From Candidatus Hydrogenedentota bacterium (lineage in GTDB: Bacteria; Hydrogenedentota; Hydrogenedentia; Hydrogenedentales; SLHB01), in contig JAWXCN010000116.1 in the NCBI GenBank assembly GCA_034408725.1, positions 1-12,309 on the forward strand: DNA of 12,309 nucleotides, written 5' to 3'. This document shows positions 1,532 through 12,309 of this stretch, one piece after another. The translations under genes and the position numbers were made by a program. Position 1 is the first letter of the stretch. Every line of letters starts with the position of its first letter. The notes under the pieces are model-generated. The model was not told the DNA's origin and did not search any database. It saw only the letters and a list, made by a program, of their open reading frames with translations.

Positions 1532-2502
1532 ACGCGTTTGAATATGCCATGCCAAAGAGTGTTGATGAGGCCATTTCGCTGTTGAGCGACAAGCCCGGTG
1601 AATCCCAGGTCATGGCCGGCGGCACTGACCTTGTCACCGCGCTGAAACAGGGAATCGTCACGCCGAAACGGGTCGTAAGCCTGCGCCACATTGACGAACT
1701 GAATTCGATTCAGACCGCGGACGGTCAACTTCGCATCGGCGCGATGACCGCGCTGGACGACATTGCAGCCAACGAAACGGTGCAGAAAAGTTTCCCCGCG
1801 ATCATCAGTGCGATCAAGGGCATCGGCAGCCAGCAAATCACTTCTATCGGTACGATCGGCGGCGACCTGTGCCAACTTCCGCGCGATTGGTATTTCCGTT
1901 CCGGGTTCGGCCTAGTTGCGCAACTCGATGGCAAAGACCTGATCGCGGACGGCGATAACCGGTACCACGCCATATTCGGAAATGACGGCCCTGCGAAGTT
2001 CGTGAATGCGTCGATTCTCGCGCCCGCGCTCATTGCGTTGGGTGCGAAGGCGACCGTGCGCGGGGCCAGCGGCGCGACGCGCGACATCGCGCTCGAGGAG
2101 TTGTTTCACGCGCCGCAAAAATCCGAGGAGGGCAATACAACGCTCGCCGCAAATGAAATCGTCACCAGCATCGTGATTCCCGTTGGCGCGAAGAAGAACG
2201 CGCTCTATTTCGTCAAACCGCGGCACGGTCTCGACTGGCCGCTCGTCGCGGCGGCCGTCGCCTACGACGTCGAAGGTGGCAATGCGAAGAACGTGCGTAT
2301 CGTACTTGGGCATGTAGCGCCGACACCGTGGCTTTCCGAGTCTGCCGCGAAGGCGCTCGAAGGGGCGGTGCTGAACGAAGAAACAGCGGCCAAAGCCGGC
2401 AACGCTTCCGCCGAAGGCGCGTCTCCGCTCAGCCGCAACGCCTACAAAGTCCAGTTGACCAAGGTCGCCGTAAAGCGAGCCATCCTCGCAACGATCGCAT
2501 AA
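1528..2502 (+). CDS. Xanthine dehydrogenase family FAD-binding subunit (PaoB/YagS-like), 324 aa
   Basis: FEYxxPxSVDEA N-terminus, AGGTDL FAD motif, LRIGAM, GTIGGDLCQ, WYFR...NRYHAIFG, RIVLGHVAPTPW, PLSRNAYKV. AAGGAGG RBS upstream; ATGA translational coupling to the Mo subunit. Confidence 0.93.
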   Translation: MNAFEYAMPKSVDEAISLLSDKPGESQVMAGGTDLVTALKQGIVTPKRVVSLRHIDELNSIQTADGQLRIGAMTALDDIAANETVQKSFPAIISAIKGIGSQQITSIGTIGGDLCQLPRDWYFRSGFGLVAQLDGKDLIADGDNRYHAIFGNDGPAKFVNASILAPALIALGAKATVRGASGATRDIALEELFHAPQKSEEGNTTLAANEIVTSIVIPVGAKKNALYFVKPRHGLDWPLVAAAVAYDVEGGNAKNVRIVLGHVAPTPWLSESAAKALEGAVLNEETAAKAGNASAEGASPLSRNAYKVQLTKVAVKRAILATIA

Positions 2503-2553: not shown

Positions 2554-2576
2554 CGGTCCACGGTAAGGAGGATTGC

Positions 2577-2780
2577 ATGGACATTGAATCTCCCGCCTTC
2601 GTCTTCCCGTGCAAACATATACGCTCCAAAGAGATGTACTATCAGTCATCCACGGCGGATGACGATCCGTACGCCAGCGGTATATTCTGGTGCACGCGCA
2701 CGCACGAGACCTTCGGTCCCGACGGTGAACCCGTCGAGAAGTCAGAGTGCCGCTCCGGCCGGCGTTGTTTTGAAGAGTGA
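2577..2780 (+). CDS. Small four-cysteine hypothetical protein, 67 aa
   Basis: Strong RBS AAGGAGG (2565-2571) 5 nt before ATG 2577. MDIESPAFVFPCKHIRSKEMYY...IFWCTRTHETFGPDGEPVEKSECRSGRRCFEE. It is the 3' part of track ORF 2328..2780, whose 5' part overlaps the FAD gene and the hairpin. Confidence 0.8.
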   Translation: MDIESPAFVFPCKHIRSKEMYYQSSTADDDPYASGIFWCTRTHETFGPDGEPVEKSECRSGRRCFEE

Positions 2781-2893: not shown

Positions 2894-3577
2894 ATGAAAC
2901 GAATCATCGCGATTTCCGCGGTCGCCCTCGTATTCGGCGTCACGATGGCTACATCGCCCGCGAACGCAGCCAAAAGCCTCACGGGCAAATATGTTGAAGC
3001 ACGTTCCTGCGACGTGTTCACGGGTCCCTGCTTTGCAAACGGTGAAGTCGGACTCACCGGTGGCGAAGCCATTCTAACCTGGGCAGTAGACTCCGGTGAA
3101 TGGAACGGCGTATCGCTCGACGGGTTGAACGTCATTGCCGTCGTCGCCGCGGCGCACACGCTTGGCGATCCCTATCGCACCTCGCTTCCCGCCAAGTCCG
3201 TTATGATTGTCGATGAAAAAGCCAGCGCCGATCAGCGGGCCGCGCTGGTTGCCATGGCGAAGTCCCTCGCCGGTGAACTCGTAGCGGACGTCGTGACCGT
3301 AAAAACGGCCGCGATTACGGCGAACATCGGCAACTGCACGGAAACGGGTTGTGCCCGCGTGGAAGCGAAAGACCTGGTGCAGATTTCTACGCGCTGCATC
3401 AACGAAGGCGATCACAAATGCGGTGGCAATGAATCCACGTACTATGAACCGCTTACGAAAGTCTCCTCGCCCATGCCCGCGTTCACGAGTGTCTCCAGCT
3501 ATGCCGGCGACAGCCTCGGCATCACGTGGACGAACGTAGACCGCCGTAGCGCATTCCTGGGTGAATTCGCACTGTAA
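2894..3577 (+). CDS. Secreted DUF1326-like Cys-rich protein, 227 aa
   Basis: GGAGG RBS at 2880-2884, ATG 2894. Signal peptide MKRIIAISAVALVFGVTMATSPANA. Motifs GKYVEARSCDVFTGPCFANGE, GEWNGVSLDGLNV and IVDEKASADQRAAL resemble DUF1326 as recalled. Further Cys in CTETGC and RCINEGDHKCGGNE. Confidence 0.75.
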   Translation: MKRIIAISAVALVFGVTMATSPANAAKSLTGKYVEARSCDVFTGPCFANGEVGLTGGEAILTWAVDSGEWNGVSLDGLNVIAVVAAAHTLGDPYRTSLPAKSVMIVDEKASADQRAALVAMAKSLAGELVADVVTVKTAAITANIGNCTETGCARVEAKDLVQISTRCINEGDHKCGGNESTYYEPLTKVSSPMPAFTSVSSYAGDSLGITWTNVDRRSAFLGEFAL

Positions 3578-3603: not shown

Positions 3604-3645
3604 GAAACGGGTTCGGTGGCCTGCGGCTCCCGGACCCGTTTCTTT
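3604..3645 (+). terminator. Probable intrinsic terminator after the DUF1326-like gene
   Basis: GAAACGGGTTCGG (3604-3616) pairs with CCGGACCCGTTTC (3630-3642) with one G:U pair; the 3' end runs TTTCTTT. Confidence 0.55.
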
Positions 3646-3700
3646 GAAGAAAATTGCGGCCGGGCTCGTCAGCAATGAATCAAGTGAAAAGGAATTTCCC

Positions 3701-4387
3701 ATGCACCCCACGATGAACACGGGCCGCCTCGCCGGCGCAATCTTGCTCTCCTGTATCGCTGTCAACACATTTGCCGCCGACTTGACCGTAAAAATGGCCG
3801 ATGCGGAACCGCCAACGGAAATCGCCAAGGAATTGCGCGATACCCTATCGAACAAGGCCCTTCAACTCGCGGGCCCAGACGGCACAATCGCCGAATTCTG
3901 GTTCCGCAAGGAGCTTGTGCTGAGCAAAAAACCAGCGACTTCCGAAGAGGCGCTCGAGGCAATGCCCGAGGTTTCGTTTGTCGGCGCGGCAAAATACTCG
4001 AAAGAACGAAATGACTTCCGCGACGACGCCATCGATCCGGGTGTATATACCATGCGCGCCGCGCTTCAACTCAACGACGGCAATCACCTCGGCACCGCGC
4101 CCACGTCGTGGTTCATTCTTCTCGTGCCCCCAAAATATGACACGGCACTTAACGGAATTGATTCCGCGAAAAAGCTGCACGACCGCAGCCGATCCGAAAG
4201 TTCCGCGAACCACCCCTGGTGCATCAACCTGCAACCCGCTCCGGATGCGACTGGCGATTTCCCCAAAACCGGCGAGGTCGATGAGTGGAAGCTGATTTAT
4301 CTGAAACTGCCGGCGACGGTTGAAGGGACCGGAGAGAAGGTGGAAGTGACTTTTGGGTTGGTTTACGAAGGCCACGGCGAGGTTTAG
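3701..4387 (+). CDS. Secreted hypothetical protein, about 228 aa
   Basis: AAAGGA RBS-like sequence before ATG 3701 (alternative ATG 3713). Signal-like GRLAGAILLSCIAVNTFA. Globular body with EFWFRK, NDFRDDAIDPGVYTMR, DGNHLGTAP and NHPWCINL. Confidence 0.8.
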   Translation: MHPTMNTGRLAGAILLSCIAVNTFAADLTVKMADAEPPTEIAKELRDTLSNKALQLAGPDGTIAEFWFRKELVLSKKPATSEEALEAMPEVSFVGAAKYSKERNDFRDDAIDPGVYTMRAALQLNDGNHLGTAPTSWFILLVPPKYDTALNGIDSAKKLHDRSRSESSANHPWCINLQPAPDATGDFPKTGEVDEWKLIYLKLPATVEGTGEKVEVTFGLVYEGHGEV

Positions 4388-4537: not shown

Positions 4538-5725
4538 ATGCCCCACGTTACACTTTACCTCGTGCGCTCGTGCGCTTTCGCCGCCGTGCTGCTACTGGGC
4601 CTCTCCTGTGGGCAGGAGCAGACCGGTTCTCAGGAAATCACGGAAACGCGGACGCTTACGACACCGGCCGAAGCCCCGCCAGCGAACGTCAGTTCCGCGG
4701 AGCGTCTTGGCATGGTCCGGCAACCCGCAGCCAACGCCGCGGCGCAACCGCGATTCTCCTGGACAACGCCCGATGGATGGACCGAACAGCCTGCGACTGC
4801 GATGCGGGCCATTAATGTCCGCCCCGCTGGCGATCCCAATTCTGAATGTTACTTGACGCTGCTGGACGGTGGTGGCGGCGGTCTCGCAGCGAACGTGAAC
4901 CGTTGGCGCGGCCAGATGGGTTTAGGAGCAATTGATGACGCCGCCGTCGCCGCACTTCTGAAGAAGCCTCTTCTCGGCATGGACGCGACCTATGTCGAGG
5001 TCGAGGGCGTCTACGGTGGTATGAGCGGCCAACAGCAACTGCCAGACTACAAGCTCGCCGGGCTTGTCCTGGCGGCGGGCGACATGGCTGTCTTCGTAAA
5101 AATGACGGGGCCGAAGGCGGTAATAGACCAGGAACTCCCAAAATTCTCTACTTTTTGCGACTCGATCGCAATGGCAGGTCCGGCCACTCCCGAATCGCCA
5201 GCGCCAACACAGGCGCCCGCTGCAACCGCGGGCCCAGCAGACGCTGCGATGCCGGCGGACCAACCACAAATTGTTGAGCCAACGCCAACCACGCAGGCCG
5301 GTTCAGGTCTCACGTGGACCGCACCCGCGGGCTGGACGCAGTCGGCGTCACGCCCCATGCGCGAGGTATCGTTCACCATGGGCGCGGAAGGCAAAACGGA
5401 ATGTTACATGTCGAAACTTGGCAACCGCGGCGGCGGTATTGAACCAAATATCAATCGTTGGGCAGGTCAGATGGGACTCGGACCCCTGACTGCCGAAGAA
5501 ATCGCCGCACTGCCCAAGGTTACGGTGCTGGGCAAGGCAAGTCCGCTTGTCGAATTCCGCGGCAATTATACGGACATGAGTGGCGCGTCCTTTGAGGAAT
5601 ACGTCATGCTGGGAACCATCGCCGAGTCGGGTGATGCCGCCATTTTCGTCAAACTGGTGGGGCCCGCGTCTGATGTTGAGGCAGAGAAATCCAACTTCGT
5701 CAGCTTCTGTGAATCATTGAAGTAA
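4538..5725 (+). CDS. Putative lipoprotein with two tandem homologous domains, 395 aa
   Basis: Lipobox-like LLGLS-C24. Two domains of about 138 aa share WTxPxGW...MR...ECY...GGG...N(V/I)NRWxGQMGL...FVKxxGP...FxxFCxS, separated by a Pro/Ala/Thr-rich linker. Confidence 0.88.
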   Translation: MPHVTLYLVRSCAFAAVLLLGLSCGQEQTGSQEITETRTLTTPAEAPPANVSSAERLGMVRQPAANAAAQPRFSWTTPDGWTEQPATAMRAINVRPAGDPNSECYLTLLDGGGGGLAANVNRWRGQMGLGAIDDAAVAALLKKPLLGMDATYVEVEGVYGGMSGQQQLPDYKLAGLVLAAGDMAVFVKMTGPKAVIDQELPKFSTFCDSIAMAGPATPESPAPTQAPAATAGPADAAMPADQPQIVEPTPTTQAGSGLTWTAPAGWTQSASRPMREVSFTMGAEGKTECYMSKLGNRGGGIEPNINRWAGQMGLGPLTAEEIAALPKVTVLGKASPLVEFRGNYTDMSGASFEEYVMLGTIAESGDAAIFVKLVGPASDVEAEKSNFVSFCESLK

Positions 5726-5729
5726 AAAT

Positions 5730-6908
5730 ATGGGCGCCATGATCAAAAATATCTTTCGTTTTCTCTCCTCCTATGGGTTTGCGTGCGTCATCTTTGTTTT
5801 TCTCCTGTTGCTGACGTTTCTTGGCACGATGGAGCAGGTCGATCATGGCCTGTACGAAGTGCAAAAAAAATACTTCGAGTCCGTGTTCCTGGTGCATTGG
5901 TTGTTTGACGTTGTGCCGATTCCGCTGCCCGGCGTCTATCTGCTCCTGACATTGTTCACGATCAACCTGATCGCAGGCGGCATCATTCGCATCCGGAAGA
6001 GCAAGAGTACGGTGGGAAATCTCATCACCCATTTCGGAATGCTCGTCATGATTTTTGCCGGTTTCGTGAATTACACGTTTGCGCAGGACGGCCACATGAC
6101 CCTCGCCGAGAACGAAGAGTCGGCGGAATTTGTGAGCTATTTCCTTTGGGAAGTCGCCATCTCTCAACCCGTTGACGGTAAAGTTACGACTGAAGCCATT
6201 ATCCCAAACGAGGCGCTCGGATACGCGCCCGAAGGCGAATCGGCCACGTTTACCAAAAACGACCTGCCGTTCGACCTGACCATTTCGGAATTCCACCGCA
6301 ACGTCGAGGTCGTGCCGCCCGCGGTCGATCCGCGGCTAAAACCCGTCGATGGTTTTGCCGTGCGGCCACTGCCCCTCGAGAAAGAAGCCGAGCTCAATAT
6401 TGCCGGCGCCTACGCGCTGGTGAAAGACAAGAAGTCCGGTGAATCACACGAAGCGATCCTGTTTGGCGCGAGCGCAATGCCGTGGACCGTGACGGTAGAG
6501 GGTAAACCGTATCTGATTGACCTGCGCCGAAAACGCTACACGCTGCCGTTCGCAATCGCGCTGGACACCTTTCATCAGGAAACACATCCGGGCACGGACA
6601 TGGCGAGCATGTTCATGAGCGAAGTCACGAAGATCGAGAACGGTGTTGAACAGCCTGTCAAGATTACAATGAACGAACCCCTTCGCCACAAAGGCTTCAC
6701 GTTGTACCAGGCATCCTGGCAACCGGCCCAGCCCGCGCTTGGCATTCCGGAAAAGTCGACGCTGGCCGTTGTTAAGAATCCCTCCGACCGGTGGCCATTG
6801 TACTCGTGCATCATTATTACCTGCGGGCTCTTGCTGCACTTTACCTTGAAGCTTTCGAAATATCTGCGGGCCGAAAACAAGCGGCTCGCGACAAGGAAGG
6901 CCGTATGA
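5730..6908 (+). CDS. resB: ResB/CcsB-like cytochrome c biogenesis protein, 392 aa
   Basis: FRFLSS N-terminus, LLTFLGTMEQ, hydrophobic N-terminal helices with the His in GNLITHFG, periplasmic domain ending ITMNEPLRHKGFTLYQASW, then NPSDRWPLY and a C-terminal TM helix. ATGA overlap with ccsA. Start could be 5739. Confidence 0.85.
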   Translation: MGAMIKNIFRFLSSYGFACVIFVFLLLLTFLGTMEQVDHGLYEVQKKYFESVFLVHWLFDVVPIPLPGVYLLLTLFTINLIAGGIIRIRKSKSTVGNLITHFGMLVMIFAGFVNYTFAQDGHMTLAENEESAEFVSYFLWEVAISQPVDGKVTTEAIIPNEALGYAPEGESATFTKNDLPFDLTISEFHRNVEVVPPAVDPRLKPVDGFAVRPLPLEKEAELNIAGAYALVKDKKSGESHEAILFGASAMPWTVTVEGKPYLIDLRRKRYTLPFAIALDTFHQETHPGTDMASMFMSEVTKIENGVEQPVKITMNEPLRHKGFTLYQASWQPAQPALGIPEKSTLAVVKNPSDRWPLYSCIIITCGLLLHFTLKLSKYLRAENKRLATRKAV

Positions 6909-9001
6909 CATTTGTCACGAAAGCCGCCGCGCTTTTATTTTGCGGAGCGTTTGCCGCCACCGCGCAATCCAGCGCCGGAATGGACAAACCTCCGCGCACC
7001 TGGGACCCGGAAGTTGTCGGCCTGTTCGCCACGCTCCCCGTCCAGGAGAGCGGCCGGGTAAAGCCGCTCAGTACTGTAGCCGGATTTACGCTGTTGAAGA
7101 TCAACGGCAAACGAGAAGTATCGCTCCCGGACAATACTAAACTCTCACCGACCGAGTGGATGCTCGACGTCATGTTTTACCCCGAGGCCGCCGAGAGTTA
7201 CGAAGTCTTCATCGTCCACTCTTCCGACGTAATCGACGCGCTCGGCATCGAGCATGCCGGGAAAAAGAAGCGGGACCGTTATTCCTACGCAGAGTTGAAG
7301 CCTGGGCTCGAAAAGCTGTTCCAGCTTGCGCAGGAATATCAGGAACGGACGCAAGGCGACACCAAATCGCTGTCGCGGTTTGAAGGCCAAATCGTCGATC
7401 TTGCCTCCAGCGTATTCATGTATCAGAAAATCACGCATTACCTGGATTTTGGACGATACGAGTTTCAATTGCCGGAAGGTTCGGTCTTGGCCGAGGTGCT
7501 TCCAGCGCCCCGGATCACGGCCGTGCTCGCAAAAGAGACACAGCTTGGCGTGTTCGCGTTTGTGCTCGAACAAGGAATTGACAACCTGGATGCGCGGCTG
7601 TCACCCGAACAGACGAAGCAGTTGCGAGAGGCGCTGCCTCCCGGTTTTGCGACGATGGACGAGACAACGCGCGCGCAAACCGCGCAACAAATCAATGCGA
7701 TCATGGAGGACACGCGGCTGATGATGGGCCGCGCTATGGGCCTTGCGCTGTTTCCGCCCGCCAAGGGCATCGAGAACCAGGATAACTGGTTGACCCCGGC
7801 GGATATCGTTGGCCACGTTTCCCACGACCACGAAGGCGTCGCGGAACAGATGGGCATGCTCGTGGATTTGGAAGAACTTGTGCGCCAACGCGACAACCCG
7901 CCCGCGTTCATGGAGCAGCTTCAACGGTTCCACGGCGAAATAACCACCCTCGCGACCGCGCGCGGGGAGTACGCGCGGATACCGCTTGAAGTGCGGTATT
8001 ACAAGTTGGACCTTTTTTACAAAGCCCTTATCTTCTTTGTCCTGGCGTTTGTCGTGACCGCGTTTGCGTGGATGGCGTCGTCCAAACGCTGGGTATCCAA
8101 CCTGGCGACGCTGTTGTTGTTCCCTCCGGCGATCCTGCTCATTGCAGGGATTGTGATGCGTTGCATCATCCGCCAACGCCCACCGGTAAGCACGCTTTAC
8201 GAAACAATCCTGTTTATCACCGCAATTGCAGTGGTGGTCGCGATAATCATAGAACTGATGAACCGCCAACGTATCGCGCTATCCATCGGCGCTATCCTCG
8301 GCGCGATGGGCATGTTTCTGGCCTACCGATTCGAGGCACAACAGGGCACCGACACCATGCCCCAACTGGTCGCGGTGCTTGACACCAATTTCTGGCTCTC
8401 CACACATGTGACTACCGTTACAATCGGTTACTCCGCTGGACTGCTCGCCGCGGCCATTGCGCACGTCTATATTCTGGGCAAGCTGTTCAAGATTAAGCGC
8501 GGCGATGAAGCGTTTTACAAAAGCATTTACCGTATGACCTACGGGGTCCTTTGTTTCGGCCTGCTGTTCTCCACTGTCGGAACGGTGCTCGGCGGAATTT
8601 GGGCAAACGATAGTTGGGGACGATTCTGGGGCTGGGACCCGAAGGAAAATGGCGCGCTCATGATCGTGTTGTGGAACCTCGCCATCCTCCACGCGCGCAT
8701 GGGCGGATACCTGCGCGATCTGGGCGTCGCCATTGCCGCGACGTTTGGCGCAATCATCGTCGGCTTCTCCTGGTGGGGCGTGAATCTGCTCGGCGTTGGC
8801 CTGCACAGCTACGGTTTCACAAGCGGCATCATGAAATGGTTGATCACGTTCTACGTGATCGAACTCGTCGTCGTTATGTTTGGATTCTTCGTCTGGTTCC
8901 GCCAAAAATTCGCGGCGCCCGTCACGCCTCCGCGGCCTGTATCCGAACCTGCCCCGGCAACGCCCCGGAAAAAGCAGCTCCCGGCAAAAGCGCAGGAATA
9001 A
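6905..9001 (+). CDS. ccsA: Cytochrome c biogenesis protein CcsA/ResC with a large N-terminal extracytoplasmic domain, 698 aa
   Basis: AAGGAAGG RBS, ATG 6905 overlapping the resB stop. LPVQESGRVKPLST, RPPVSTLYET, VLDTNFWLSTHV, WWD motif GGIWANDSWGRFWGWDPKEN, ILHAR and GLHSYGF; multiple TM helices in the C-terminal half. Confidence 0.95.
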   Translation: MTFVTKAAALLFCGAFAATAQSSAGMDKPPRTWDPEVVGLFATLPVQESGRVKPLSTVAGFTLLKINGKREVSLPDNTKLSPTEWMLDVMFYPEAAESYEVFIVHSSDVIDALGIEHAGKKKRDRYSYAELKPGLEKLFQLAQEYQERTQGDTKSLSRFEGQIVDLASSVFMYQKITHYLDFGRYEFQLPEGSVLAEVLPAPRITAVLAKETQLGVFAFVLEQGIDNLDARLSPEQTKQLREALPPGFATMDETTRAQTAQQINAIMEDTRLMMGRAMGLALFPPAKGIENQDNWLTPADIVGHVSHDHEGVAEQMGMLVDLEELVRQRDNPPAFMEQLQRFHGEITTLATARGEYARIPLEVRYYKLDLFYKALIFFVLAFVVTAFAWMASSKRWVSNLATLLLFPPAILLIAGIVMRCIIRQRPPVSTLYETILFITAIAVVVAIIIELMNRQRIALSIGAILGAMGMFLAYRFEAQQGTDTMPQLVAVLDTNFWLSTHVTTVTIGYSAGLLAAAIAHVYILGKLFKIKRGDEAFYKSIYRMTYGVLCFGLLFSTVGTVLGGIWANDSWGRFWGWDPKENGALMIVLWNLAILHARMGGYLRDLGVAIAATFGAIIVGFSWWGVNLLGVGLHSYGFTSGIMKWLITFYVIELVVVMFGFFVWFRQKFAAPVTPPRPVSEPAPATPRKKQLPAKAQE

Positions 9002-9931: not shown

Positions 9932-10684
<753 letters not shown>

Positions 10685-10732
10685 AGCCCGGACTGGCGGC
10701 CGCGTTATGATGGTGTGGCAGAGGCTACATCC

Positions 10733-11407
10733 ATGCGCGTTCTGTTGGTAGAAGATTCGAAGCGCCTGCAGACCTACATTGCGAAAGGTCTGCGGGCCGC
10801 CGGCTGTGTGGTTGACGTCGCAATCGATGGCGAGGAAGGTCTGTGGCTCGCGACCGAAAACGAGTATAACGTCATCATTCTCGATCTTATGCTTCCCAAA
10901 ATGGACGGCATATCGGTTTTGCGGCAACTGCGCGCGCACAAGCGCAAAACCCACGTCCTCATCCTCACCGCAAAGGATACCGTGCCGGACCGCGTCCATG
11001 GTCTGGAGCAAGGCGCCGACGACTATCTCGTCAAACCGTTCGCGTTTGAAGAGCTGCTCGCGCGCACTCAAGCCCTCGCGCGGCGAAGCTACGGAAGAAA
11101 GGATGCGCGCATCGCCATCGGAGATGTAACCATTGACACCACGCGCCGCACCGTATCCCTGAATGAAACGTCGCTCGATCTTCGGCCGCGCGAGTACGCA
11201 TTGCTGGAGTTGCTGGCGCTTCGACAGGGCGAAGTCGTCACGCGCACAGAAATTGAACAGCATATCTACGATGATCTCGCCGAGCCGTCCAGCAACGTCG
11301 TCGACGCGGCCATCTGTATTCTTCGCAAAAAAATCGACGCCCCCACCGGCCCGTCGCTCATCCAGACAAGGCGCGGTATCGGATATGTGCTCGAGGGGCC
11401 GCCATGA
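10733..11407 (+). CDS. OmpR/PhoB-family DNA-binding response regulator, 224 aa
   Basis: GAGG before ATG 10733. MRVLLVED, ILDLMLPKMDG (phospho-acceptor Asp), LILTAKD, GADDYLVKPF, and winged-helix SNVVD...LRKKI...IQTRRGIGY. Confidence 0.96.
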   Translation: MRVLLVEDSKRLQTYIAKGLRAAGCVVDVAIDGEEGLWLATENEYNVIILDLMLPKMDGISVLRQLRAHKRKTHVLILTAKDTVPDRVHGLEQGADDYLVKPFAFEELLARTQALARRSYGRKDARIAIGDVTIDTTRRTVSLNETSLDLRPREYALLELLALRQGEVVTRTEIEQHIYDDLAEPSSNVVDAAICILRKKIDAPTGPSLIQTRRGIGYVLEGPP

Positions 11408-12309
11408 CGCGATCCATACACGGCCGCGTTGCGGCGGGTGTGATGGCGGGCCTTTTCGTGGTGCTTACCCTTTGCGGGTCTGCGCTGTACCTGTATGTGC
11501 GCCACGCGCTCACGGCCAACTTCGACGATGCGCTGGCCGGCAAAGCGCGCGCTTTTGCCGCGCTAAGCAAGCAGGACGAAGAAGAGTATGAGGCAATCGT
11601 CATTGGGCTCGATCAGTTACCGCAGTCCGCGCGTGAAACCGTGCTTCGCGCGCTCGATAGCAGTTCCATCGAGGACCTCGAACAGATCACGCATGAGGGC
11701 CGGCTGTTTTATAAGGTCGAGACCATCCGGCGCGGCGTGGAAAGTGAATTTCTCGTGTCGGGCGATGGCGTATACCTGGGCGTATCCGACGAGTTCGATT
11801 TCGCATTTGACAAGGCGGCATTGCCGGAGTTTCAACCCTCGTCAAAGGCCGAGTATTACCATGTGTGGGACGAAGACAACGATACGGTGGCGAAATCACC
11901 TTCGCTTGGCGAAGCCGCCCTTGCCATTCCCCATGCCGTTGCCACGTCTCCCCGGACCTACAATATCACGCTGCCCGATGGCCGATCGGGCCGGGCCATC
12001 GCTCGACAATTCATCCCGCGTAGCGATGGCCCTGGCGAGAATGAACCGCTTACGCTGGTCATGGCCCAATCACGCGAAGGCCTCGACCAATCGCTGCGCG
12101 TCGTTCGCACGGGTCTGTTGATGGCCGCGGTGCTGACCGCGCTCGCCATCATTGCCGTGGTGCGGCTATCCGTGCATGTCGGGTTGCGCGCGCTCAATAC
12201 TTTGGCGTCGCAAGCGGCAACCATTGATGCGGACACGCTGGCGTATCGTTTTCCGGCGGACGGGATGACGGCTGAACTCGCGCCCATTTGCGAGCGATTA
12301 AATGAATTG
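11404..12309 (+). CDS. Two-component sensor histidine kinase, N-terminal 302 aa (3'-truncated; not in the ORF track)
   Basis: ATG 11404 overlaps the regulator stop (ATGA) and the frame stays open to the window end. MTRSIHGRVAAGVMAGLFVVLTLCGSALYLYV (TM1), extracytoplasmic loop, LLMAAVLTALAIIAVV (TM2), then HAMP-like GLRALNTLASQAATIDADTLAYRFP...AELAPICERLNEL. The HisKA and ATPase domains would lie beyond the window. Confidence 0.88.
   Translation, partial: MTRSIHGRVAAGVMAGLFVVLTLCGSALYLYVRHALTANFDDALAGKARAFAALSKQDEEEYEAIVIGLDQLPQSARETVLRALDSSSIEDLEQITHEGRLFYKVETIRRGVESEFLVSGDGVYLGVSDEFDFAFDKAALPEFQPSSKAEYYHVWDEDNDTVAKSPSLGEAALAIPHAVATSPRTYNITLPDGRSGRAIARQFIPRSDGPGENEPLTLVMAQSREGLDQSLRVVRTGLLMAAVLTALAIIAVVRLSVHVGLRALNTLASQAATIDADTLAYRFPADGMTAELAPICERLNEL

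Follow-up and report, generated by a model that had tools for sequence, protein, structure and literature searches.

The window that we analyzed is a stretch of 12,309 nucleotides that forms an entire contig (C116) in the genome of a Candidatus Hydrogenedentota bacterium (5.17 Mb, 92% complete). Its forward strand opens with a gene for a PaoC-like molybdenum cofactor subunit (2–1531; Pfam MoCoBD_1 and MoCoBD_2), the 5′ end of which is cut by the contig start, followed by a gene for a PaoB-like FAD subunit of 324 residues (1528–2502; Pfam FAD_binding_5 and CO_deh_flav_C). A perfect 20-bp palindromic hairpin (2508–2553) lies between the FAD gene and a short open reading frame for a protein of 67 amino acids with four cysteines (2577–2780). 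The same strand continues with genes for a cysteine-rich, putatively secreted DUF1326 protein with a signal-like N-terminus (2894–3577; Pfam DUF1326, E = 6.7e-14) and for another protein with a signal-like N-terminus (3644–4387, putative start codon). The latter product matches no family in Pfam or NCBIfam, and its gene usually follows that of DUF1326. In Hydrogenedentota and Verrucomicrobiota these two genes accompany the small gene, and they are also found at locus L017 (6001–7682). The remainder of the window encodes a 395-residue protein with a signal- or lipoprotein-like N-terminus (4538–5725), ResB-like and CcsA-like proteins of system II cytochrome c biogenesis (5730–9001), which are kept only in the closest relative of this locus (L001), and, at 9932–12309, a PepSY protein ending in a long Asp/Glu tail plus a two-component pair made up of an OmpR-type response regulator and a sensor kinase. 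The 395-residue protein contains two internal copies of a unit of about 130 residues that share the motifs TWT.P.GW, ECY and N.NRW.GQMGL, with no Pfam family above cut-off.

The short reading frame had been singled out in the initial annotation as a four-cysteine protein with a strong ribosome binding site, WCxxT and FGPDG motifs and no signal peptide. Each of these features could be re-read at its position. The frame runs from ATG at 2577 to a TGA ending at 2780 (67 codons), and a Shine–Dalgarno sequence (AAGGAGG, 2565–2571, forward strand) stands 5 nt before the start codon. The cysteines are residues 12, 39, 58 and 64 (C-x26-C-x18-C-x5-C), WCTRT occupies residues 38–42 and FGPDG residues 46–50. 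The N-terminus, judged by eye, is polar and devoid of any hydrophobic stretch, consistent with a protein that carries no signal peptide.

We then asked how widely this protein, which is encoded by a single-copy gene in its own genome, is distributed. A word-indexed search with its sequence (P0001) found 20 relatives of 66–88 residues (E = 3.6e-32 to 5e-18), and HMMER, run exhaustively against 1.84 billion representatives, returned 238 clusters (50% identity) at E ≤ 0.001, with 25 of the 238 cluster representatives reaching E ≤ 1e-10. In an alignment of 21 close relatives (A1), all four cysteines, the stretch RSKEM (16–20), W38, FGPDG and R62 are invariant. Among 142 diverse members (A2), C39, G47, C58, R62 and C64 are still invariant, and conservation is 90% or higher for C12, K18, W38, T42, P48 and D49. 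Given these relatives and the conservation of the cysteines, the open reading frame is a real gene, far beyond chance; the initial annotation would have given up its proposal for a protein devoid of homologs or of conserved cysteines, and this protein has both. The small protein also changes at about the same slow rate as the FAD subunit: their respective identities to the window sequences are 78 and 79% at L001, 61 and 68% at L002, and 58 and 52% at L005.

None of this connects the protein to a known family. P0001 matches no Pfam or NCBIfam model, the 142 members gave only scattered Pfam matches, all at E ≥ 0.003, and a profile search of the PDB for sequence relatives returned nothing meaningful (best match: the zinc finger of APLF, E = 0.13). 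The sequence of P0001 is free of any CxxC knuckle. With neither a matching family model nor a paired CxxC or CxxCxxC motif, it falls outside the ferredoxins, rubredoxins and zinc ribbons, in agreement with the initial remark that its cysteine spacing resembles no ferredoxin or rubredoxin. Pfam and NCBIfam likewise place it outside the TorD/DmsD and NapD families of Tat chaperones, and the XdhC_CoxI and XdhC_C domains of Pfam are both absent. Searches with P0001 or A2 found no fused or longer forms of the family, a result that carries little weight. Look-alike clusters in the ESM Atlas are all unnamed and are commonest in Planctomycetota and Acidobacteriota. Sampling of 201 genomes from the phylum of one carrier (G135) found the gene in G135 only, with at most 28 candidates scored per genome, a depth at which misses are possible. 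Among the matches listed, the data sets that hold the DNA are microbial-mat metagenomes, with no RNA set among them. At the least, the analysis places several hundred clusters for which Pfam and NCBIfam have no model in a secure gene neighborhood and gives them a role that can be tested.

The hairpin upstream of the small gene has a fold energy of −60.9 kcal/mol (z = −8.7), and no T-run follows it. It is a copy of a REP-like palindrome that is repeated over the genome: as a query it matched 69 times (E ≤ 1), on many contigs and at most sites on both strands. L001 contains a different hairpin at the same place (5921–5953). Since the palindrome is repeated genome-wide, we dropped the idea that it acts as a specific regulator of the small gene. 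It could uncouple the expression levels of the FAD and small genes.

The enzyme encoded upstream was assigned from its FeS, molybdenum and FAD subunits. The full-length ortholog of the molybdenum subunit in L001 has PaoC as its closest solved relative (5G5H_C, E = 3e-61); the subunit scores 197 bits against a cut-off of 1180 bits for the NCBIfam PaoC equivalog, and by that model is therefore not a PaoC ortholog. The best PDB matches of the FAD subunit are 5Y6Q_B (E = 5e-40), PaoB (5G5G_B) and HcrB (1RM6_B). Another contig of the same genome (C20) begins with the 5′ part of the operon that the window lacks, encoding the FeS subunit and the N-terminus of the molybdenum subunit (L177, L189). The FeS subunit, of the 2×[2Fe-2S] type, carries the twin-arginine motif SRRGFLK. 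Across related loci, SRRxFLK occurs in 44 of 49 FeS subunits; four others have their N-terminus off the locus and one could be read only to RR, so that every FeS subunit with a readable N-terminus carries a Tat motif. The gene order is thus FeS-Mo-FAD-small. On C20, and likewise in L001 (192–1855), genes for an XdhC-type chaperone and a MocA-like cytidylyltransferase are divergent from the operon; the L001 locus, which is 78–87% identical, shows the same arrangement of operon and divergent genes. XdhC and/or MocA genes lie within the flanks of 13 of the 29 genome loci described below. Because the molybdenum subunit is nearest to PaoC, the FAD subunit is nearest to 5Y6Q_B, PaoB and HcrB, and the FeS subunit has a Tat motif, the enzyme is predicted to be a Tat-exported, PaoABC-like molybdo-flavoenzyme with the gene order FeS-Mo-FAD.

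A second operon for a xanthine oxidase (XO) family enzyme with a Tat signal is present in the same genome, on contig C77 (L187, 30–3970). Its order is FeS-FAD-Mo, its FAD subunit has all four cysteines in a loop discussed below, and no small four-cysteine gene is found nearby. This operon serves as an internal control for the specificity of the small gene.

The association of the small gene with the enzyme was examined in two sets of loci. The first consists of 29 genome loci from Hydrogenedentota and Verrucomicrobiota, together with single bins labeled Nitrospiraceae and Methylomirabilota. Some bin labels (among L011, L014 and L028) look wrong: L011, labeled Nitrospiraceae, is essentially the same locus as L009 and L010 from Hydrogenedentota, and L014 comes from a bin labeled Akkermansia muciniphila with a genome of 7.3 Mb. 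The second set consists of 80 metagenome loci from a distant subfamily, 30–45% identical to P0001. The scan used a sub-alignment of 10 sequences (A3), so the 80 loci sample a portion of the family that is recognizable by the pattern HLR[SH]K[GA]MY. The gene for the FAD subunit lies directly upstream on the same strand in 27 of the 29 genome loci; the exceptions are L017 and L015, the latter located where its contig begins. Among the 80 distant loci, 76 have the FAD gene directly upstream and four are truncated by a contig start, which leaves 76 of 76 evaluable loci. The projected gap between the two genes has a median of 28 nt in the first set (n = 27) and 51 nt in the second (n = 75), with a maximum of 287 nt. 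In 135 genomes from the phylum of the window, 32 contain both the small gene and the FAD ortholog, one contains only the small gene, four contain only the FAD gene and 98 contain neither. The linkage of the small gene to operons of the xanthine dehydrogenase family is therefore near absolute; its absence had been named in the initial annotation as grounds for rejection.

Conservation on the downstream side is of a different kind. DUF1326 is a frequent downstream neighbor in Hydrogenedentota and Verrucomicrobiota and follows the small gene in 25 of the 29 genome loci, but in only 4 of the 80 distant loci, where the next gene is mostly convergent or unrelated. These observations define FeS-Mo-FAD-small as the conserved unit, and DUF1326 and its neighbor are a lineage-specific addition to the operon. 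Three genome loci (L006, L008 and L013) have the FAD and small genes in the absence of DUF1326.

A few genomes break the pattern. Three genomes of one genus (g52: G044, G045 and G048) keep Mo-FAD-DUF1326 with a spacer that holds no small reading frame, and a fourth genome of this genus has a divergent copy of the small gene. Because three genomes keep the cysteine-poor enzyme (see below) in its absence, the small protein is not indispensable. In G136, the small gene is grouped with DUF1326 and the gene after it on a different contig from the Mo-FAD operon. G118 (96% complete) encodes a divergent family member beside an NrpR-like regulator gene, and the FAD query used here detected no ortholog in this genome. 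This orphan member (L188, 4601–4888, contig C19) has RLRE in place of RSKE and lies near a glutamate dehydrogenase gene.

The initial annotation had described the upstream FAD subunit as lacking its cluster cysteines. Alignment with 5Y6Q_B and PaoB bears this out. Both proteins have an insertion loop with four cysteines, which we take to bind a [4Fe-4S] cluster. The corresponding loop of the window protein comprises residues 108–162 (1849–2013, forward strand), and the four ligand columns hold D120, V130, L138 and A156. This former [4Fe-4S] loop is nonetheless the most conserved stretch of the FAD subunit: the nearly invariant columns of the FAD alignment (A4) cluster at 109–162. Among 103 unique FAD subunits from loci with the small gene, 101 are without the full set of loop cysteines. 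In 97 of these, one loop cysteine is kept, the first (RPRCWY). Three have no cysteine at any of the four columns, all from the genus of the window, and one further row of zero cysteines contains masked letters and is unreadable. The remaining two (L163 and L166) keep all four loop cysteines and also carry the small gene; in L166, all four align with the cysteines of PaoB and 5Y6Q_B.

The position of these two sequences bears on the order of events. In a quick maximum-likelihood tree, rooted on a single long-branch outgroup (the C77 paralog), L163 and L166 are sister to all 84 cysteine-poor rows (SH-aLRT 83). Since they combine four cysteines with the small gene and branch basally, the small gene appears to predate the loss of the loop cysteines. 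The most economical order would be that the small gene came first, three cysteines were lost once, and the last cysteine was lost in the genus of the window. It follows that the small gene did not arise to repair the loop. It may have made the loop cluster dispensable, and redundancy followed by loss is allowed by this order. The initial suggestion that the small protein supplies in trans the center lost from the FAD subunit thus survives in part: 101 of 103 FAD subunits are cysteine-poor, as it would have them, while L163 and L166 keep four cysteines alongside the small gene.

Structure predictions gave leads of limited reach. AlphaFold models of P0001 (pLDDT 71.8) and of the distant member P0135 (pLDDT 79.6) consist largely of coil and contain few short strands, a composition often seen in small metal-knuckle proteins. 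Foldseek against the PDB gave nothing at E ≤ 0.001 for the P0001 model and no rows for the P0135 model. When the P0001 model was compared by VIA-align with 48,161 chains, only two reached Z ≥ 2: 9o8u_F (Z = 2.1) and 2y8n_B (Z = 2.0), with 38 residues aligned in each case. Both are HiPIP-like [4Fe-4S] small subunits. The better P0135 model found 0 chains at Z ≥ 2. A separate VIA re-scoring of three PDB chains found none at this level. Since the match was not reproduced with P0135 and the cysteine motif differs, we treat it as a lead and assign no fold. A prediction of the pair of FAD subunit (A4) and small protein (A2), run with neither controls nor the Mo and FeS chains, gave ipSAE values of 0.00 and 0.00, which speak neither for nor against contact between the two.

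Taken together, these observations lead us to propose, with a probability of roughly 45% for the explanation as a whole, that the small protein belongs to an undescribed family of about 65–75 residues, made in the cytoplasm and built around a four-cysteine center, and that it is a dedicated, metal-holding fourth subunit that is co-exported with one clade of PaoABC-like enzymes. The four cysteines would hold a putative metal center, either an Fe–S cluster or a single Fe or Zn. The protein would bind to the enzyme while both are still in the cytoplasm, with the FAD subunit as its probable partner and the conserved former [4Fe-4S] loop, or its vicinity, as the probable site, and would then leave with the enzyme as a fourth subunit by the Tat "hitchhiker" route. 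The proposal builds on synteny, the position at the end of a four-gene operon, co-occurrence across genomes, the conserved cysteines, the lack of a small gene in the C77 operon and in E. coli paoABCD, the Tat signal of the enzyme and the similar evolutionary rate of small protein and FAD subunit. From such sequence patterns we infer that the protein binds metal, where it docks, that it is co-exported and whatever redox role it may have. The initial annotation had arrived at an extra subunit or electron carrier; the homologs, conserved cysteines and operon linkage that this view calls for are there, and the role itself stays a conjecture from sequence. Several findings count against a fourth subunit: the protein matches no metal-binding family or fold and has no CxxC knuckle, the gene is absent from three g52 genomes, separated from the enzyme genes in G136 and orphaned in G118, a hairpin precedes it in the window, and no fused form was found.

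The main rival, which we consider unlikely, is a cytoplasmic, enzyme-specific factor for assembly or Tat proofreading that would retain the FAD subunit or shield the Tat signal until cofactor loading is complete, remain in the cytoplasm and not belong to the mature enzyme. A protein devoid of a signal peptide, encoded in operons that are all predicted from the motif to be Tat-exported, would suit such a task, and the dispensability in g52, the separation in G136 and the hairpin in the window would be expected of a sub-stoichiometric helper more than of a core subunit. As discussed in PMC4273604, it is common for the gene of a Tat substrate to be accompanied by that of a dedicated chaperone. 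Against a helper of this kind speak the lack of any match to TorD/DmsD, NapD or other families and the fact that no gene of this kind accompanies the other Tat-exported XO-family enzyme of this genome. Four invariant cysteines are not a feature of any signal-binding chaperone that we know of. A variant in which the factor is a chaperone for the molybdenum cofactor is unlikely because this role is already filled by XdhC and the MocA-like protein encoded next to the operon; for the same reason we dropped the idea that the small gene replaces paoD. Tied more closely to the fourth-subunit proposal, as a narrower case of it, is the possibility that an Fe–S cluster of the small protein functionally replaces the lost [4Fe-4S] cluster of the FAD loop as the point of electron exit or entry. 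We regard this as quite unlikely. The 101 cysteine-poor FAD subunits argue for it, as does the C77 operon, which has the PaoABC gene order, four loop cysteines and no small gene; the branching of L163 and L166 beside the 84 cysteine-poor rows fits a scheme of small gene first, redundancy, then loss, and the only two chains at Z ≥ 2 for the P0001 model were both HiPIP-like. However, this match vanished with the P0135 model (0 chains at Z ≥ 2, 0 Foldseek matches), and C-x26-C-x18-C-x5-C differs from the CX2CXnCXnC pattern given for HiPIP-like subunits in the accessible part of PMC12358834. The small gene also coexists with an intact four-cysteine loop in L163 and L166, the enzyme persists in its absence in one genus, and the basal branch has an SH-aLRT of only 83 in a quick tree with one long-branch outgroup. 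In its fullest form, which we rate equally low, a Cys4 Fe–S protein of new fold would ride through Tat on FeS-Mo-FAD and replace the loop as the electron exit from the flavin, after which the loop cysteines were lost once and early; the complex would be the first four-subunit enzyme of the XO family.

Two further explanations detach the small protein from the enzyme. It might work with the secreted DUF1326 protein and its neighbor, for example in the handling of a metal such as copper, with only an indirect tie to the enzyme. DUF1326 follows the small gene in most genome loci (25 of 29), and in G136 these two genes and the next form a unit of their own away from the enzyme genes. Yet DUF1326 is found in so few of the distant loci (4 of 80, compared with an upstream FAD gene in 76 of 76 evaluable ones) that we hold this partnership to be highly improbable; L006, L008 and L013 have the FAD and small genes and no DUF1326, genus g52 keeps DUF1326 and loses the small gene, and a signal-like N-terminus is seen on DUF1326 but no export signal on the small protein. 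Scarcely credible in our judgment is a free-standing regulator or stress protein of zinc-finger-like type, whose place after the FAD gene would be historical. The divergent member beside the NrpR-like regulator in G118, a genome in which the query used found no FAD ortholog, is the one case that favors it, set against more than 100 strictly syntenic loci from at least two phyla and from distant subfamilies. Neutral persistence cannot explain a placement that is so strictly kept.

If the small protein is a true fourth subunit, the XO family would gain a new architecture, the Tat hitchhiker route a fourth passenger, and nature an example of one redox module exchanged for another. The enzymes concerned form a cysteine-poor sister clade in Hydrogenedentota, Verrucomicrobiota and other uncultured lineages, in which the small gene almost always directly follows the FAD gene. 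A literature search found no paper on a small cysteine-rich partner of XO-family enzymes and none that links DUF1326 with molybdenum. To our knowledge, the physiological electron acceptor of PaoABC-type enzymes and the role of their extra [4Fe-4S] loop are unsettled.

Among known systems, the small four-cysteine subunits that sit beside a large enzyme, such as MASS gamma (9O8U) and HPAD gamma (2Y8N), offer an analogy in form. The accessible text of PMC12358834 describes these HiPIP-like accessory subunits of glycyl radical enzymes as proteins of about 7–9.5 kDa with four cysteines that sit on the large enzyme, which requires them for soluble expression as opposed to any known electron transfer. 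P0001 does not follow the CX2CXnCXnC motif stated there, the two groups share no sequence similarity, and the partner, a glycyl radical enzyme, is unrelated. Two solved FAD subunits frame the comparison for the loop. No solved structure matches the FAD subunit better than the medium subunit of the aldehyde oxidase from Methylobacillus (5Y6Q), with residues 1–321 aligned; the difference is that 5Y6Q_B has four loop cysteines where the window subunit has none. HcrB of 4-hydroxybenzoyl-CoA reductase (1RM6_B, E = 4.6e-23) is likewise an XO-family FAD subunit that has this insertion loop. We take HcrB to be cytoplasmic and its loop to bind a [4Fe-4S] cluster, and we know of no small Cys4 partner for it.

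The closest overall counterpart is PaoABC from E. coli with its chaperone PaoD (5G5G and 5G5H). The molybdenum subunit is nearest to PaoC, the FAD subunit and PaoB align over their full lengths, the FeS subunit bears a twin-arginine signal, and a gene of the XdhC/PaoD type lies nearby. In E. coli, PaoB and PaoC have no signals of their own and are exported piggyback on PaoA, as reported in the accessible part of PMC4273604; a fourth subunit would, on our proposal, travel in the same manner. The differences are equally clear. The E. coli genes are arranged as paoA-paoB-paoC-paoD, that is FeS-FAD-Mo, as opposed to FeS-Mo-FAD in operons of the window type. The XdhC gene is divergent instead of standing last as paoD does, and a profile of the small family finds no match in paoABCD of E. 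coli. The enzyme is therefore like PaoABC, but it departs from it in the four loop cysteines that PaoB has, in gene order and in the place of the PaoD-type gene, and its operon adds a conserved fourth gene, that of the 67-residue Cys4 protein.
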